The translations under genes and the position numbers were made by a program. Shown piece by piece: positions 1 to 57,801 of a stretch of 64,000 nucleotides of DNA (its first letter is position 1; the number at the start of each line of letters is the position of its first letter). The notes below the pieces were generated by a model that worked only from the letters and a program-made list of their open reading frames with translations, ran no database searches and was not told where the DNA came from. The DNA is from Nanobdellati archaeon (lineage in GTDB: Archaea; EX4484-52; GLR71). The stretch is taken from the NCBI GenBank assembly GCA_019429125.1, contig JAHYJO010000002.1, positions 2,695 through 66,694 on the forward strand, in the 5' to 3' direction.

Positions 1-1077
1 GAGGTTGTCAATAATGTTCCGGCTGGACTTGGTAAGAATGCAAAGCAAAAATTTTCAAGAGATGAACTTTCAGAGATTATGTCAAAGGGGGTCCGATGGA
101 CAATTGATAATGGTTTCGGGTGGAAAGGGGATGAGAAACGTCTTGAAGAGAATGGATGTATGAAAAGTGCTGATATAAATTATGTTTCTGATAATGCTTT
201 CAAGCGTGGGATGCCTCAGATTGGTAGTTTGGGTTCTGGTAATCATTTCCTTGAGGTACAGTCGGTTGATGAAATATTTGATGCTAAAACTGCAAAAGTA
301 TATGGTCTTACTGAACCTGGGCAGGTTGTCATTATGGTTCATTCTGGGTCGCGTGGTTTAGGTCATCAGGTGGCATCTGATTACTTGCGTAGTATGGAAA
401 AAAAGTATGGTATCGCTGGGCTTCCTGATAGGGAACTTATAAATGCGCCATTTTTAAGTGATTTAGGGCAGGAATATTATGGTGCTATGAGTGCGGCTGC
501 TAATTATGCATGGGTCAATAGACAGATGATGTCGCACTGGATTCGTGAAAGTTTTGCTAAAGTTTTTGAGTCTGATGCCCATGAGTTGGGTATGGATATT
601 ATTTATGATGTTGCGCATAACATTGCAAAGCGCGAGACTCATACTGTTGATGGTGAAAATATGGATGTGGTTGTGCACAGAAAAGGTGCGACACGATCAT
701 TTGCGCCGGGACGGATTGAGGTTCCTGAAATATATCGGGCTGTAGGTCAACCTGTGCTTTTGCCGGGGTCTATGGGTACATCGTCTTATATCTTGGCTGG
801 TACTGAAAAAGCTATGCAAACTACTTTCGGGTCAACTGCGCACGGTGCTGGGCGGTTGATGAGTCGGTATGCTGCAATTCAAAAATTCCGTGGTGAAACA
901 ATTAAGAAAGAACTTGAGGCAAAAGGTATAACTGTGCGTGCGGCTAGTTGGAATGGGATTTCTGAGGAAGCGCCTGGTGTTTATAAGGATGTTGATGAGG
1001 TTGTGCGTGTGAGTGATGCGGCTGGGATTGGAAAGCTTGTGGCAAAGGTTAAGCCTATGGGTGTGCTGAAAGGTTAG
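1..1077 (+). CDS. rtcB: RNA-splicing ligase RtcB, C-terminal ~360 aa; the 5' end lies outside the window
   Basis: The frame is open from nt 1. It contains the RtcB motifs GSGNHFLEVQ and HSGSRGLGHQ. Stop is a TAG at 1075-1077. Confidence 0.85.
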   Translation, partial: EVVNNVPAGLGKNAKQKFSRDELSEIMSKGVRWTIDNGFGWKGDEKRLEENGCMKSADINYVSDNAFKRGMPQIGSLGSGNHFLEVQSVDEIFDAKTAKVYGLTEPGQVVIMVHSGSRGLGHQVASDYLRSMEKKYGIAGLPDRELINAPFLSDLGQEYYGAMSAAANYAWVNRQMMSHWIRESFAKVFESDAHELGMDIIYDVAHNIAKRETHTVDGENMDVVVHRKGATRSFAPGRIEVPEIYRAVGQPVLLPGSMGTSSYILAGTEKAMQTTFGSTAHGAGRLMSRYAAIQKFRGETIKKELEAKGITVRAASWNGISEEAPGVYKDVDEVVRVSDAAGIGKLVAKVKPMGVLKG

Positions 1078-28695: not shown

Positions 28696-29667
28696 ATGTT
28701 AAATAATGAGACCGGATGGATCGTAAAAGAAGAAGCTGAGAGTGATTCTAAATACGGTTGTTTTCCTCATGAACGAACTATTGAAGAATGTTTAAACAAT
28801 GGTCTTGTCATAATTGATAAGCCTGCGGGTCCCACTTCGCATCAGGTTGCAGCGTGGATTCGTGATGTTTTAGGCGCTAAAAAAGTTGGTCATGCAGGAA
28901 CTCTGGATCCACAAGTAACGGGTGTACTTCCATCTCTTATAAATAATGCTACAAAAATAACTCCTGCTCTTCTTACTGAAGGCAAAGAATATGTATTTAT
29001 AATGATGTTGCATTCTGATGTTTCTGAAAAACTTATAAAAAATACTGTTTCTGATTTTATTGGTACTATTGTGCAGATGCCACCTGTCAAGTCTGCTGTT
29101 AAGAGACGACTGCGTCAGAGAAATATATATTCGCTTGATATTCTTGAAATCTCGGGTAGATATGTTCTTTTTAAGGCTGATGTGCAGGCTGGAACGTATA
29201 TACGTACATTATGTGTGGATTTAGGTAAAAGAATGGAGGTTAAAGCACATATGCATGCTCTTCGAAGAACTCGTGCAGGTCCATTTTATGAAAATCAGGC
29301 AGTTACACTTCATGATCTTAAAGATGCTTTTGTGGCTTGGAAAGAGGATGGGGATGAATCAAAGCTTCGTGAGATTATAAAGCCTGTCGAGTTTGGGGTC
29401 AAGCATATGAGGACCATACTTGTCAAGGATTCTACTGTCTCTGCTTTATGTCATGGCGCACCTCTCCATATTGGTGGGATTTCAAAATTATCTAAAGGCA
29501 TTGAAGTTGATGACCAGATTGTTATAAAGAGCCTTAAAGGTGAACTGATAGGTATTGGTACGGCTTGCATGGAATCTGAAGATATAAAGGTTCAGAAGAA
29601 AGGCATTGTTGCAACACTTAACCGACTTGTCATGAAAGAAGATTTATATCCACGCATGTGGAAATAG
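28696..29667 (+). CDS. cbf5: tRNA pseudouridine synthase Cbf5 (TruB family with PUA domain)
   Basis: GHAGTLDPQVTG catalytic motif and a C-terminal PUA-like region. Confidence 0.9.
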   Translation: MLNNETGWIVKEEAESDSKYGCFPHERTIEECLNNGLVIIDKPAGPTSHQVAAWIRDVLGAKKVGHAGTLDPQVTGVLPSLINNATKITPALLTEGKEYVFIMMLHSDVSEKLIKNTVSDFIGTIVQMPPVKSAVKRRLRQRNIYSLDILEISGRYVLFKADVQAGTYIRTLCVDLGKRMEVKAHMHALRRTRAGPFYENQAVTLHDLKDAFVAWKEDGDESKLREIIKPVEFGVKHMRTILVKDSTVSALCHGAPLHIGGISKLSKGIEVDDQIVIKSLKGELIGIGTACMESEDIKVQKKGIVATLNRLVMKEDLYPRMWK

Positions 29668-29757
29668 AAGTAGTGTCTATTTATTGGATGGTTATTATGT
29701 ATATTATTGTTGTAAATATTTTTATTGATTTTATTTAGGATATTATGTGATGTTTAT

Positions 29758-29964
29758 ATGGTTTTTAAAAAAGATTTGCTTGATATACTTGCTTGTCCTA
29801 GCTGCAAAGGCGATGTGTCTTTTAAGGGGATGTTTATTGTTTGTGAAGGGTGCAAGCTTGCGTTTCCGGTTCTAGAAACAGATGTTCCTGATATGCTGAT
29901 TGATGATGCTTGGGTATTGTCTAAGGCTGAAAAAGCTGGATTTAAGCATAATCTTAAGCTTTGA
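29758..29964 (+). CDS. Trm112-like small zinc-finger protein (UPF0434-like)
   Basis: The pattern LACPSCKG...CEGCKLAFPVLETDVPDML is typical of Trm112/YcaR. Confidence 0.5.
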   Translation: MVFKKDLLDILACPSCKGDVSFKGMFIVCEGCKLAFPVLETDVPDMLIDDAWVLSKAEKAGFKHNLKL

Positions 29965-32759: not shown

Positions 32760-33545
32760 ATGAAAGTTAAACTGTTGAGCCGAGACACTAATTCACTTAA
32801 GCTTGAAATATCTGAGACTACACCTGTATTTGTTAATTCTCTGCGTAGGGTAATTATGCAAGGGATACCTATATTATCTATGACTAGTGTTGATTTTATA
32901 GATAATACTTCCGCATTGTATGATGAGATAATTGCACACCGTCTTGGTTTGTTACCTCTTGTTTTTGACCTAAAGAAATTAGTTTTGGTTGCTGATTGCA
33001 AGTGTGGCGGTAAAGGTTGTTCTGCATGTCAGGTTAAATTCGTGTTGAAAAAAGATGGACCTTGCACCGTATATGCAAAAGATTTTAAATCAACTGATCC
33101 TGATGTTATGCCTGTAGATGGTGATATTATTATCGTCAAGCTTTTAGATGGTCAGTCAATCGATTTAGAAGGTACTGCAAATATAGGTTTTGCTCGTGAT
33201 CATGCAAAATGGCAGAGTTCTATTGTAGGTTATGGTTTTTATCCTACATTGAAAGTCGATGCGAAACGTATTAAGGAAGCTAAAGAATGTATTGATGCGT
33301 GTCCATTAGGACTTATAACATCTGATTTCAAGTTAACTGATCCTTATTCTTGCACTCTTTGTGGTTCATGTTCAGAATCATGTCCACCAGGTGTTGTGAC
33401 TATTGAGGGTGACAGTTCAAGAATAATATTGTATATTGAATCGGTCTCAGGTCTTAGTCCGGAAGTAATTCTCCGTGAAGCAAAAGATTTATTGGCAAAT
33501 CATGTTGGCGAGTTTGAAGAGGCTTTGAAAAAAGAATTAAAATGA
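32760..33545 (+). CDS. rpoD: DNA-directed RNA polymerase subunit D (Rpo3) with 4Fe-4S-type Cys cluster insertion
   Basis: Position after S11; CTLCGSCSESCP ferredoxin-like motif. Confidence 0.85.
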   Translation: MKVKLLSRDTNSLKLEISETTPVFVNSLRRVIMQGIPILSMTSVDFIDNTSALYDEIIAHRLGLLPLVFDLKKLVLVADCKCGGKGCSACQVKFVLKKDGPCTVYAKDFKSTDPDVMPVDGDIIIVKLLDGQSIDLEGTANIGFARDHAKWQSSIVGYGFYPTLKVDAKRIKEAKECIDACPLGLITSDFKLTDPYSCTLCGSCSESCPPGVVTIEGDSSRIILYIESVSGLSPEVILREAKDLLANHVGEFEEALKKELK

Positions 33546-33553
33546 GGATTTAT

Positions 33554-33737
33554 GCAGGGGTCGCCAAGTCTGGTCAACGGCGCTGGACTTAAGATCCAGT
33601 GAGTCAGTCTCTACGAGGGTTCGAAATTAAAATAAGCCTTTAAAGTGTAAGTATTATCTTATGTTGTATGAGGTAGTGCTTGCAGTTGTCATTATTGTGG
33701 TTTAGGTTTTGTTTTTAAGAAAATCCCTTCCCCTGCA
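33554..33737 (+). tRNA. tRNA-Leu (anticodon TAA) interrupted by a ~98-nt intron within the T-loop
   Basis: The 5' part, 33554 to about 33625, is GCAGGGGTCGCCAAG...CTTAAGA...GAGGGTTCGAA. The T-stem 3' strand (CCCTT) and acceptor 3' strand (CCCCTGC) plus A73 lie at 33724-33737. The intact tRNA-Leu(TAG) at 35441-35525 is a close paralog. Confidence 0.75.
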
Positions 33738-33874
33738 CTCTCATTAAAAATATATTTATAAAGGTATTGGTATTAATTATACCTGTTCAATGTAATATAT
33801 GCATTGTCTCCAAGTACGTAACATTGGAATTATTGGTGTTGCGCGCGAGGGAAACCATATAAGGAGGTTATTAA

Positions 33875-35325: not shown

Positions 35326-35400
35326 GCTCCCGTAGTGTAGACCGGCCAATCATTCTGGCCTTTCAAGCCAGTGACTCGGGTTCAAATCCCGGCGGGAGCA
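35326..35400 (+). tRNA. tRNA-Glu (anticodon TTC)
   Basis: Hand-folded cloverleaf. Anticodon loop CTTTCAA, T-loop TTCAAAT. Confidence 0.9.
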
Positions 35401-35440: not shown

Positions 35441-35525
35441 GCAGGGGTCGCCAAGCCTGGTCAACGGCGCTGGGCTTAGGACCCAGTCTTATAGAAGTTC
35501 GGGGGTTCGAATCCCCTCCCCTGCA
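35441..35525 (+). tRNA. tRNA-Leu (anticodon TAG), type II
   Basis: Anticodon loop CTTAGGA, long variable arm, A73. Uninterrupted. Confidence 0.9.
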
Positions 35526-36571: not shown

Positions 36572-36691
36572 ATTTATATATTTAGATTTATATTTAGATT
36601 TATATTTAGATTTATATTTAGATTTATATTTAGATTTATATTTAGATTTATATTTAGATTTATATTTAGATTTATATTTAGATTTATATTT
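36572..36691. repeat. tandem array of ~10 copies of a 12-nt unit (TTTAGATTTATA)
   Basis: The perfect head-to-tail repeats are directly visible, in the htpX downstream intergenic region. Confidence 0.9.
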
Positions 36692-38320: not shown

Positions 38321-38498
38321 GGTGAGGGTGAGCTAGCTCGGTTATGCTTGACGACTGTGGATCTTCAAACCCGGGTTCAAACGAGGGGGCTCCCTCAAGG
38401 CGCATTATATGTTCAGACCTTTGGTTGAATATAGATTATCTTTATCATTAATGATTTTTGCGCTAGAGATGTCTTTTCTGGAATTCCCGGCCCTCGCC
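38321..38498 (+). tRNA. tRNA-His (anticodon GTG) with encoded G-1, C73 and a ~100-nt intron in the T-loop
   Basis: G-1 plus acceptor GTGAGGG (38321-38328); anticodon loop CTGTGGA (38355-38361); T-stem CCGGG with loop TTCAAA at 38371-38381. The T-stem 3' strand CCCGG and acceptor 3' strand CCCTCGC plus C73 lie at 38485-38498. Confidence 0.65.
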
Positions 38499-40456: not shown

Positions 40457-40563
40457 GGGCTCTTAGTTCAGTTGGAAGAACGCTGCCTTTGCAAGGCAGA
40501 GGCCGCGCGTTCAATTTGCGTTTACCTTTAGGGTTTTAGCAAGAACATATCGCGCAGAGTCCA
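40457..40563 (+). tRNA. tRNA-Ala (anticodon TGC) in the 16S-23S spacer, with a ~34-nt T-loop intron
   Basis: Acceptor GGGCTCT with the G3:U70 pair; anticodon loop TTTGCAA; T-stem GCGCG with TTCAA at 40505-40514. The 3' T-stem CGCGC and acceptor AGAGTCC plus A follow at 40551-40563. Confidence 0.75.
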
Positions 40564-46046: not shown

Positions 46047-46274
46047 TTGTCTATATGTCTTCGTTTTTCAAAAGATGATTTGACTACTGTCTCAAATTAT
46101 GACTATTTTATAGAACTCATCTCAAAATTGTCATGAATCGTGTTTTTTTGTTATATCGTCAAAATCTTTATAAAATTTATAAGTTAACATACATTTACTT
46201 ACTTTAGTAAGTCAATCCCTTTAGGTGGCTTCAATGTCACAGATTTGTGCGCTTTTGTATCAAGTCTTGGATTG

Positions 46275-46542
46275 GAAGAGGCAGAATGGCTTACTGTGGT
46301 ATAATCTTTGATTTATCATTGATTGTATCGTGGAGGAAAGTCCGCCCTCCGTTAAATGAAACCGGTGTGAGTCGGTGCGTGAAAGCGTAGGCAATGCAGC
46401 AGAAACGAATGTTTTTCCGTAAATATTATGATACGTTAGTTGAAGTTCCGGAAAAGACAGTGAAACGGGCATCCTTTCAGGAGCAAGGTATAACCGCTTA
46501 GTCTGATGCCATTAAAACATAAGGCGGCTTACTCGCCTCTTC
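46275..46542 (+). ncRNA. rnpB: RNase P RNA (rnpB), compact form
   Basis: CR-I-like GGAGGAAAGTCCGCCCTCC and CR-V-like ACATAAGGCGGCTTACTCGCC; the P4 strands AAG(U)CCGC and GCGGCUU pair with a compensatory change; terminal helix GAAGAGGC/GCCTCTTC; internal GTGAAACGG-type blocks. Confidence 0.7.
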
Positions 46543-46768
46543 ATAATTTTTATAATATTGGGTGATGTATATTTCAAAAAAAGAAAAAGCAGGAATGCCG
46601 TCGGGAAATGCAGGACTTGTAAGATATTTTGATGATTATAAGGAAGCTGTACAGATTAAACCAGAGCATATTTTAGGGTTTATATCTTTTATCATTGTTC
46701 TTGAGCTTGTGCTTAAGTATATGGCTGTATAGGTTAGTTATTTATTTCTTTTTTCCTATAGTTTTCTT

Positions 46769-56033: not shown

Positions 56034-56325
56034 GATAATTTTGGTTGTTTTTTTTGGTTTTTATTGTTATGTGCACACTAGGATATATTTATAAAGCTAT
56101 CTTTGTATATTATTCTCGTTATGTATAAGGTTAGAAGAACATTATAGTTGATTTCTTGCTTTTTGTTCTTTGTGATATAATATAGATTATAGTTTTGTAT
56201 CTATAGTATTGTGTATATATATCCAGAAAATAAAAAGCATATAGATGTTTTCATTAATATCCTTATGATTTGATTTAGAATTGTTTTCTGTTAAAGAAAT
56301 AAATATAAATACGAATGTGATAACA

Positions 56326-57801
56326 ATGAATGAATTTGAAAAATTAGGACTAGATGAAGCTATACTTAAAGTTATAGTTGTTGAAAAATTTGAGAAGCCA
56401 AGTGATATACAGGTAAAAGCAATACCACTTATTCTTGAAGGTAAAGATGTTATGGCTGTATCTGCTACAGGTTCAGGTAAAACGCTCGCTTTTGCGGCAG
56501 GTATTATACATGATGCTAAAAGAGGTGCAGGGATTCAGGCATTAATACTTACGCCTACAAGAGAACTTGCAGAACAGGTTTCGGACTCGTTTAAGACATT
56601 CTCACAGTTTAAGAAATTGAGAATATTGCCTGTTTATGGTGGTGTGTCTATAAGTGCTCAGATACAAGGACTTAAGCAAGCTGATGTTGTTATAGCTACA
56701 CCAGGAAGGGTTCTTGATCATATTCAGAGAAAGACTATTGATTTAAGTTTAGTAAGTACACTTGTTTTTGATGAAGCTGATAGGATGCTTGATATGGGTT
56801 TTATTGATGATGTTAAAAAGATTACAACTAAATGTCCAAAGAAAAGACAGACTTTACTTTTTTCTGCAACATTATCAAAGAAAGTATATAGTCTTGCAAA
56901 AGGATATATGAATAATCCTGAATCTGTTTCTGTTGAATCTCGTGTTGATCCTACTAAATTGAGTCAGTGTTTTTATGATGTTCAGGATAATCTTAAATTT
57001 TCACTTTTAGTACATTTATTGAAAACTGAGAAATCAGGACTTGTGATGGTATTTTGCAATACTCAGAGAAATACTGATTTTGTTGCAAAAAACATTAAGA
57101 TGCAAGGTCTCGATGCGTCTGCAATTCATGGTGGTCTTACACAAGATAAAAGGACCAGGATTATGAAAAATTTCAATTCTAGTGATGTCCATGTGTTAGT
57201 ATGTACAGATGTTGCTGCTCGTGGTCTTGATATAAAGGGCGTGTCTCATGTATATAATTATGATGTGCCTAATGAAAGCGATAATTATATACACAGGATA
57301 GGTCGTACTGCACGTGCTGGTAAAGAAGGTAAAGCAATAACTATACTTGCAAGCAGAGATTATGGAAATTTCAGGAAAGTTTTAAGTGATACTGGTGTAA
57401 AGGTTGTAAAAGAAGATGTACCTGCTGTTGAACGTGTCAAGTTAACTGTTCCTGTCAGTTCTGATAGTGGTTCAGGTCGTGGCGGTTTCGGTGGAAATCG
57501 TGGCAGTTCTGGATTCGGTGGTAGAGGCGGTTCAGGTTCCGGTGGTCGAAGCAGTTCTGGTTTCAGTGGTCGAAGCGGTTCTGGATTCAGTGGTAGAGGC
57601 GGTTCAAGTTCCGGTGGTCGAAGCAGTTCTGGATTCAGTGGTAGAGGTGGTTCAGGTTCCGGTGGTCGAAGCAGTTCTGGATTCGGTGGTAGAGGCGGTT
57701 CAGGTTCTAGCAGTGGCGGATATGGGGCTAAAAAGACTGGTTTTGGTGGTAATAACAACCGTAAATCATCTGGCGCTGGTAAATCTTTTCAGAAAGATTA
57801 A
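56326..57801 (+). CDS. DEAD-box ATP-dependent RNA helicase with a C-terminal RGG/SG-rich low-complexity tail
   Basis: Q-motif, Walker A GSGKT, DEAD and SAT motifs, HRIGRTAR; then ~100 aa of repeating GGRSSSGFSGRGGSGS units. ATG 5 nt after GTGATA. Confidence 0.9.
   Translation: MNEFEKLGLDEAILKVIVVEKFEKPSDIQVKAIPLILEGKDVMAVSATGSGKTLAFAAGIIHDAKRGAGIQALILTPTRELAEQVSDSFKTFSQFKKLRILPVYGGVSISAQIQGLKQADVVIATPGRVLDHIQRKTIDLSLVSTLVFDEADRMLDMGFIDDVKKITTKCPKKRQTLLFSATLSKKVYSLAKGYMNNPESVSVESRVDPTKLSQCFYDVQDNLKFSLLVHLLKTEKSGLVMVFCNTQRNTDFVAKNIKMQGLDASAIHGGLTQDKRTRIMKNFNSSDVHVLVCTDVAARGLDIKGVSHVYNYDVPNESDNYIHRIGRTARAGKEGKAITILASRDYGNFRKVLSDTGVKVVKEDVPAVERVKLTVPVSSDSGSGRGGFGGNRGSSGFGGRGGSGSGGRSSSGFSGRSGSGFSGRGGSSSGGRSSSGFSGRGGSGSGGRSSSGFGGRGGSGSSSGGYGAKKTGFGGNNNRKSSGAGKSFQKD

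Follow-up and report, generated by a model that had tools for sequence, protein, structure and literature searches.

How does an archaeon obtain a working tRNA from a gene whose last 14 nucleotides lie about a hundred nucleotides away from the rest? This question is raised by the spacer between the genes for RpoD and ribosomal protein L18e in the stretch of 64,000 nucleotides analysed here (hereafter the window). We conclude that positions 33554-33737 of the window very probably hold a functional DPANN gene for tRNA-Leu(UAA), whose T-loop is split at 59/60 by a 98-nt protein-spliced intron of the bulge-helix-bulge (BHB) type. The host is archaeal, as indicated by an archaeal 16S-tRNA-23S operon, an archaeal RNase P RNA and the splicing ligase RtcB within the window, and its RpoD is identical to MBW6461587.1, from a metagenome-assembled genome labelled 'DPANN group archaeon'.

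An interrupted tRNA-Leu(UAA) gene downstream of rpoD

The tRNA gene begins 8 bases past the rpoD stop codon and ends 137 bases before the L18e gene. Exon 1 (72 nt, 33554-33625, forward strand) comprises the 5' strand of the acceptor stem, the D-arm, the anticodon arm (TAA), the long variable arm, the 5' strand of the T-stem (GAGGG, 33615-33619) and the T-loop nucleotides U54 to A59 (33620-33625), and ends in GAGGGTTCGAA. Exon 2 (14 nt, 33724-33737, forward strand; TCCCTTCCCCTGCA) supplies U60, the 3' strand of the T-stem (CCCTT), the 3' strand of the acceptor stem (CCCCTGC) and the discriminator A73; CCA is not encoded. The preliminary description of this locus had thus been right that the parts missing from the first portion of the tRNA reappear downstream, and its limits for the gene and for an insert of about 98 nt are exact (33626-33723, 98 nt). 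It had also placed the insert away from the canonical 37/38 site, and T-loop position 59/60 is indeed among the documented non-canonical intron sites of archaeal tRNAs (PMC4090602; PMC3239211). By contrast, its statement that the 5' portion is a perfect paralog of the intronless tRNA-Leu(UAG) gene (35441-35525, forward strand) does not hold, as the two genes differ by four substitutions in the first 47 nt and their variable arms are quite different.

Several observations tie exon 2 to exon 1. The T-stem formed by the two exons is GAGGG/CCCTT, so that exon 2 matches its own gene, whereas the Leu-UAG paralog has GGGGG/CCCCT. With up to two mismatches allowed, the 14-mer of exon 2 has one other occurrence in the window, the 3' end of tRNA-Leu(UAG); 0.17 occurrences would be expected, and its match is therefore not due to chance. 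G+C makes up 28% of the insert, described earlier as AT-rich, whereas the window averages 35% and the joined exons reach 58%. A split or permuted tRNA gene was considered and rejected, the exons being collinear, on one strand and 98 nt apart.

The gene is missed by ARAGORN and by Rfam at the gathering score, the latter yielding a 21-bit partial tRNA match at the locus and nothing more. Yet once the exons are joined at the predicted junction (exon 1 ending in GGTTCGAA, exon 2 starting with TCCCTT), ARAGORN names the product an 86-nt tRNA-Leu(taa), a canonical class II tRNA with a long variable arm and A73. Because of the runs of A, the product of the window gene would be identical whether the cut fell at 57/58, 58/59 or 59/60; the junction was set to 59/60 by copies with unambiguous ends, namely the tRNA-Glu gene of a relative (L016) and also the tRNA-His gene of the window, both described below. 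UUA and UUG together make up 37% of the Leu codons in 35 window genes, and a tRNA with the anticodon UAA is therefore needed.

Conservation of the locus in close relatives

Relatives were collected by a protein search with RpoD (66-81% identical) and by contig look-ups; scans of GTDB representatives and of JGI metagenomes returned distant relatives only, with RpoD identities of at most 49%. In all contigs of close relatives (loci are designated L followed by a number) the order S13-S4-S11-RpoD-[tRNA]-L18e-L13-S9-RpoN is kept, and tRNA-Leu(UAA) carries an insert of 100-105 nt at the same T-loop position in L011, L012, L013/L014, L016 and L018; the short contig L015 ends within its insert. Across these six genomes (the window and five others) just 5 of the 86 exon columns vary, two of which represent a compensatory change from U-A to G-C in the anticodon stem. 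Exon 2 is invariant (100% in all six), and the exons of L011 are identical to those of the window. The intron, on the other hand, retains about 14 invariant columns. Near-invariant exons flanking a diverging insert exclude a decaying pseudogene, and their conservation argues strongly, at the level of sequence comparison, that tRNA-Leu(UAA) is functional.

In more distant relatives with RpoD about 50% identical, L001 (4781-4896) and L019 (about 2289-2400), the orthologous tRNA-Leu(UAA) gene has an identical T-arm without a T-loop intron and is interrupted instead by an intron of about 30 nt at 37/38, while L002 and L006 possess an insert of about 80 nt in the D-loop of the orthologous gene. Since distant relatives have a 37/38 or a D-loop insert in its place, the T-loop intron is confined to a single clade. 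The L001 gene also encodes the 3' CCA that the window gene lacks.

The same spacer holds other unusual tRNA genes in these distant lineages. In two more distant DPANN loci, L004 (4837-4922) and L010 (about 1005-1090), the tRNA-Leu gene that follows rpoD has the anticodon AAG with a wobble A, and such a tRNA-Leu has been reported earlier for ARMAN-4/5 (PMC3239211). The last 12 nt or so of the L010 gene, with about 45 nt of downstream sequence, are present in three tandem copies up to the contig end (about 1075-1232), a pattern for which misassembly and a repeat at an integration site are both conceivable. In L020 (about 2400-2675), and also in L021, L003 and L008, the rpoD-L18e spacer holds an apparent class II tRNA enlarged by several insertions that add up to about 190 nt; in three of the four (L020, L021 and L008) its strand is the opposite one. 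ARAGORN made no call for this apparent tRNA in the four spacers.

Bulge-helix-bulge geometry at the exon-intron junctions

Drawing a BHB motif at the junctions had been proposed as a check on the preliminary description, and the motif can be drawn in strict geometry, with all five T-stem pairs as the outer helix. We used the arrangement in which the central helix has 4 bp and each 3-nt bulge is cut between its second and third nucleotides. In the resulting register, U54-U55-C56-R57 pair with intron nucleotides n-2 to n-5, the 5' bulge consists of A58 A59/i1 and the 3' bulge of n-1, n/U60 (slashes mark the splice sites), and the inner helix begins with the pair i2:n-6. In the window gene the 5' half of the motif, U54 U55 C56 G57 followed by the bulge A58 A59/A(i1) that holds the 5' splice site, occupies 33620-33626 (forward strand). 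The intron nucleotides AGAA at 33718-33721 are the 3' strand of the central helix, and 33722-33723 together with U60 form the 3' bulge (A A/U60). The central helix thus consists of U54-A, U55-A and C56-G with a G57xA mismatch, and the inner helix starts from intron nucleotide 2.

This strict register fits all ten intron copies that we recovered (including those in other tRNAs, see below). The outer helix is complete (5/5) throughout and the inner helix has at least four pairs in every copy, while the central helix is complete (4/4) in six copies and has three of four pairs in the remaining four, 57:n-5 always being the broken pair. In L013 and L016, the 59/60 junction is the single best BHB among approximately 12,500 candidate site pairs. 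Within the alignment of the six pre-tRNA-Leu sequences, the pairs U54-A, U55-A/G and C56-G are present in 6/6, and the first pair of the inner helix covaries, being CG in three, UA in two and GC in one. Folds constrained to contain the BHB lie 0.8-4.1 kcal/mol above the minimum free energy across the copies, and 1.1 kcal/mol above it for the window Leu gene. The latter has the loosest BHB of the family, with one inner-helix mismatch in addition to G57xA, and would therefore need an endonuclease tolerant of relaxed BHBs; its AT-rich intron is also the most diverged in sequence and the lowest in model score.

The intron as a structured RNA

The 98-nt intron (33626-33723, forward strand) is predicted to fold into a rod. 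Its inner helix, H', pairs 33627-33636 with 33708-33717, and a G.U-rich hairpin of 18 pairs at 33646-33684 (forward strand) corresponds to the family hairpin P4, in which 11 of 12 pairs have changed on both sides among nine copies. The minimum free energy of the intron is -25.8 kcal/mol (z = -4.87) on the forward strand, compared with -5.2 kcal/mol (z = -0.78) on the reverse strand, the fold being strand-specific because many of its pairs are G.U.

Comparative analysis points to the same architecture. In the RNAalifold consensus the cloverleaf is kept, and the insert forms a rod with three or four helices. When cloverleaf, BHB and rod were evaluated together over the six pre-tRNAs, the share of paired cells was 94.8%, compared with 45-53% after the partners were slid, and changes on both sides affected 17 pairs, compared with 4-7 in these controls. 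For nine introns the corresponding share of paired cells was 87%, against 35-51% in slid controls, with covariation in 18 of the 26 pairs. The long-range inner helix has a competitor in a local hairpin at the 5' end of the intron, built from different sequences in different copies (GAGGG/CCCTC, CAAC/GTTG, CGAC/GTCG and UUAAA/UUUAA); covariation is found in both. At E<=10, an Rfam search over both intron loci of the window returned noise only. The preliminary description had found no C/D-box motifs in the insert, and RTGATGA, TGATG and CTGA are indeed all absent. An 18-nt direct repeat (83% identical) between the 5' leader of the gene (33535-33552) and the start of the intron (33625-33642) is absent from the relatives and is probably a matter of chance in AT-rich sequence.

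Homologous introns in tRNA-His and tRNA-Glu genes

Judged by sequence and predicted structure, the window Leu intron and its homologues make up a family of structured introns (98-121 nt), all located at T-loop position 59/60, whose hosts in this clade are tRNA-Leu(UAA), tRNA-His(GUG) and tRNA-Glu(UUC). Trained on the six Leu introns, a covariance model gives the window Leu copy 62.8 bits (54.6 bits after retraining) and recovered three copies on which it had not been trained, at 38381-38485 of the window, 5147-5251 of L012 and 5131-5229 of L016. These untrained His and Glu copies had E-values of 4e-8 to 1.7e-10, and the retrained model scores them at 78-82 bits.

The second window copy reveals a tRNA-His(GUG) gene at 38321-38498, just upstream of the 16S rRNA gene, which was called by neither ARAGORN nor Rfam and was found by the intron covariance model alone. 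Its newly recognised exon 1 (38321-38381, forward strand) starts with G-1 at 38321, followed by positions 1-59. The 103-nt intron at 59/60 (38382-38484, forward strand) scores 46.8 bits (E 4e-8) with the original model and 79.5 bits with the retrained one, and exon 2 (38485-38498, forward strand) extends from U60 to C73 and is followed by an oligo-T run. The BHB of this intron is a perfect 3-4-3, and ARAGORN names the exons, joined at the predicted junction of GGTTCAAA with TCCCGG, tRNA-His(gtg).

In the relatives, the tRNA-Glu(UUC) gene downstream of rpoN contains a family intron at 59/60 (L023 12630-12750; L016 5132-5230; and a partial copy in L011 from about 4407 to the contig end), and the joined exons are recognised by ARAGORN as tRNA-Glu. 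The window, for its part, encodes an intronless tRNA-Glu(UUC) (35326-35400, forward strand) that corresponds exactly to the two exons of the L023 and L016 genes placed end to end. Every base is identical between the window gene and the relatives' joined exons, so the difference is one of precise presence or absence, and the window gene, read as a natural 'spliced' allele, shows where the junction lies.

The distribution of the family was examined further. L023, which extends the L012 contig, has three copies within 4 kb, hosted by Leu, Glu and His tRNA genes; its His copy, too, was recovered without having served for training. With its filters off, the retrained model found two copies only, those of Leu and His, in the whole 64-kb window, and a search of 22 other loci returned the known copies only; a scan of viral contigs for the intron motif found none. 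The His intron of L023 is 77% identical to the Leu intron of L011 and 66% identical to the His intron of the window, and the Leu intron of L018 is 67% identical to the Glu intron of L016 and 44-57% identical to the other Leu introns. Accordingly, in an identity matrix and a UPGMA clustering of the ten short copies, drawn without support values, the introns are not grouped by host tRNA, which suggests that introns have been exchanged between tRNA loci.

Splicing machinery and proposed mechanism

A gene for the tRNA-splicing ligase RtcB (PF01139, E 5e-129) opens the window (1-1077, forward strand), its N-terminus being lost at the window start. RtcB joins ends bearing a 2',3'-cyclic phosphate and a 5'-OH, such as those generated by the splicing endonuclease. 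An archaeal RNase P RNA, which serves in the maturation of pre-tRNA 5' ends, is located at 46274-46543 (forward strand; RF00373, 159 bits). No tRNA_int_endo domain of the splicing endonuclease EndA was detected with Pfam in 40 window ORFs, and a tblastn search of the window with an unverified M. jannaschii EndA query, which carries little weight, gave no match; EndA is presumably encoded elsewhere in the genome.

We propose that the cloverleaf of the precursor would fold normally, with the T-stem serving as the outer helix of the BHB. Pairing of U54-U55-C56 with a G-A-A close to the 3' end of the intron would create the central helix and place the splice sites in the two 3-nt bulges, while the remainder of the intron would form a long rod that brings both ends together. 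Following the archaeal route, in which EndA cuts both bulges and RtcB ligates (PMC4090602), EndA would then excise the intron and RtcB would join the exons into the 86-nt tRNA; RtcB would probably also circularise the excised intron. EndA cleavage, ligation and circularisation are the steps that we infer. Because almost all T-loops contain the sequence UUCR, to which the 3' end of the intron (YGRAA-N) can pair, one and the same cassette would form a splice motif in any tRNA, and this pairing may be the reason why 59/60 recurs as the insertion site.

Other features of the window

The L18e leader (33738-33874) is strongly conserved, the same spacer being found in L011, L012, L016 and L018. It contains a promoter-like box (TTTATAAAG), then TCTCC-N-AGTA, a hairpin with a covarying stem and, just before a GGAGG Shine-Dalgarno sequence, the invariant GCGAGGGAAACCA. 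From their sequences, TCTCC could pair with GGAGG, and the region is possibly a ribosomal-protein operon leader. Immediately upstream of the tRNA-Ser/S13-S4-S11-RpoD cluster, positions 28696-29964 encode a Cbf5/TruB-type pseudouridine synthase and a Trm112-like ORF, and the window as a whole is rich in functions for the maturation of tRNA and rRNA (Cbf5/TruB-type enzyme, RtcB, RNase P RNA). The tRNA in the 16S-23S spacer (40457-40529) obtains 39 bits with Rfam and no call from ARAGORN.

Two repeat arrays were also noted. The spacer after an M48 peptidase gene contains a perfect tandem array of 9.6 copies of the 12-nt unit TATATTTAGATT (36577-36691), and the 3' end of a DEAD-box helicase ORF (56281-57801) contains imperfect tandem repeats of 24, 48 and 72 nt (57502-57707), the translation of which is rich in Gly, Ser and Arg.

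Comparison with known archaeal tRNA introns

BHB introns at 59/60 have been described in pre-tRNA-Cys(GCA) and pre-tRNA-Pro(GGG) of Candidatus Micrarchaeum (ARMAN-2), as well as in tRNAs of Crenarchaeota and Nanoarchaeota (PMC3239211; PMC4090602). In ARMAN-2, tRNA-Pro has two T-loop introns (PMC3239211), and the 13-nt intron of tRNA-Cys is cleaved in vitro by the organism's own epsilon-2 EndA (PMC3239211; PMC4090602). The introns described here share with those of ARMAN-2 the T-loop site, the use of the T-stem as a flanking helix and a BHB that is strict or relaxed; in both cases the host is a DPANN archaeon and the genes are missed by standard tRNA finders. Unlike the 13-nt intron of ARMAN-2 tRNA-Cys, however, those of the present family form a covarying multi-helix rod of 98-121 nt, and homologous copies reside in three tRNA species.

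Sharing of introns between tRNA genes also has a precedent, in the Thermoproteales, where 'large-scale tRNA intron transposition' was reported (Fujishima 2010, as related in PMC4090602). As far as that account goes, the two cases have in common very similar introns in different isoacceptors and gain and loss among close relatives; intron relationships incongruent with the host tRNA, described there, are suggested here by the ten short copies. The Thermoproteales belong to the TACK archaea, whereas the hosts here are DPANN; compared with the introns in the same account, ours form one family at one position, 59/60, and are much longer and more structured, the sample being ten copies.

Long tRNA introns with a function of their own are exemplified by the intron of euryarchaeal tRNA-Trp(CCA), which hosts a box C/D guide RNA (PMC4090602). 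The present introns resemble it in being unusually long, in their conserved internal features and in probably being excised as a circle, but the tRNA-Trp intron is located at 37/38 and possesses C, D, C' and D' boxes with guides, none of which is seen here. Kaneta et al. found that tRNA gene disruption is raised in several DPANN lineages, in association with L3-loop variants of EndA, and suspected unidentified disrupted tRNA genes behind incomplete-looking tRNA sets (PMC5829648). The tRNA-Leu(UAA) and tRNA-His(GUG) genes of the window are of the very kind suspected in that study, which describes the disruption of DPANN tRNA genes without describing the present intron family (PMC5829648). Both BHB introns at 59/60 and shared intron families have thus already been described in archaea; what sets the present introns apart is that they are unusually long (98-121 nt), share a conserved, covarying rod and occur at one position only.

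Alternative and complementary explanations

The insert in tRNA-Leu(UAA) might be a self-splicing intron, since the bacterial and organellar versions of this gene are classic hosts of group I introns (PMC4033280), and archaeal integrative elements target tRNA genes (PMC3293823), so that the insert might also be the scar of an element directed to tRNA 3' halves. Length, position and context refute both variants. With its 98 nt the insert falls far below the size of a group I core (more than about 200 nt), it lies in the T-loop and not at 37/38 in the anticodon loop, the Rfam search at E<=10 gave no intron match, and the host is an archaeon. As for a scar, the 3' part of the tRNA is not duplicated, the locus is flanked by rpoD and L18e with no integrase, and only short, weak repeats surround it. 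A dead gene disrupted by an insertion, its tRNA being supplied from another locus, would account for the silence of the tRNA finders and for the BHB being the loosest of the family. It is nevertheless very improbable, given that, over six genomes with RpoD differences of 19-34%, the insert has diverged freely but the exons, the isolated 14-nt exon 2 included, have stayed invariant or changed in a compensatory manner, and that synteny and a splice-competent geometry of the insert are maintained in all six.

Could the fold serve a small RNA, whether a guide, a regulator or a stable circle, encoded by the intron itself? Its 98-121 nt certainly contrast with the medians of 12-25 nt of archaeal tRNA introns, which range from 11 to 129 nt (PMC4090602), its helices covary strongly even far from the splice sites, and a stretch predicted to be unpaired, AGATTATCTTTRTC...TGATTTGCGC, is conserved in several copies. 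We regard this function as quite unlikely, however. Besides the lack of C/D boxes in the window copy, none is conserved in the relatives. An inspection by eye of the intron alignment (A5) found neither a k-turn in the P2/P3 internal loop, nor an ACA box, nor an H/ACA-like layout to be conserved. Neither window copy matches an Rfam family, complementarity to the 16S, 23S, tRNAs and RNase P RNA of the window stays within the expectation from shuffled sequences, and most of the conserved sequence blocks have disappeared from the Leu copy of the window; the need to keep the splice sites together in a rod would be reason enough for the fold. A different extension complements the BHB intron reading and has, in our estimate, a little under an even chance of being correct: the family may be mobile or evolve in concert, by gene conversion, transposition or reverse splicing followed by recombination, and be lost precisely. 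Homologous introns at an identical position in three tRNA species, the identities of the L023 His and L018 Leu introns that do not cluster by host tRNA, the tRNA-Glu intron present in L011, L023 and L016 and precisely absent from the window, the 37/38 or D-loop introns found instead in tRNA-Leu(UAA) of distant relatives, and the comparable pattern in Thermoproteales, to the extent that Fujishima 2010 is covered in PMC4090602, all speak for it. Set against these are the noise inherent in identities among ten copies of about 100 nt from six genomes, the presence of just two copies in 64 kb and of none in viral contigs, and the shortness of the shared exon flanks (GGGTTCRAA and TCCC). A bolder version, in which the T-loop introns would be a self-propagating RNA element whose 3' end guides it to U54-U55-C56-R57, enabling it to make a splice site in any tRNA, and which spreads among tRNA genes, for instance through a reversed endonuclease/ligase reaction with recombination or through gene conversion, the rod perhaps persisting as a circular RNA with its own role, we consider unlikely; if it were true, one mobile intron family would cause much of the apparent 'missing tRNA' in this clade.

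Implications

Taken by itself, the Leu intron of the window is ordinary for an archaeon of this kind. As two essential genes, those for tRNA-Leu(UAA) and tRNA-His(GUG), are invisible to ARAGORN and Rfam, annotations of such DPANN genomes would wrongly report missing tRNAs, and inferences of completeness or auxotrophy would be affected likewise. The finding extends known biology and does not overturn it, the hidden tRNA-His gene and the intron family being useful additions. The family keeps to one position, can be recognised by a covariance model and is present in some tRNA genes but absent from their counterparts in close relatives, and so offers a compact system for studying the gain, exchange and precise loss of tRNA introns in archaea.
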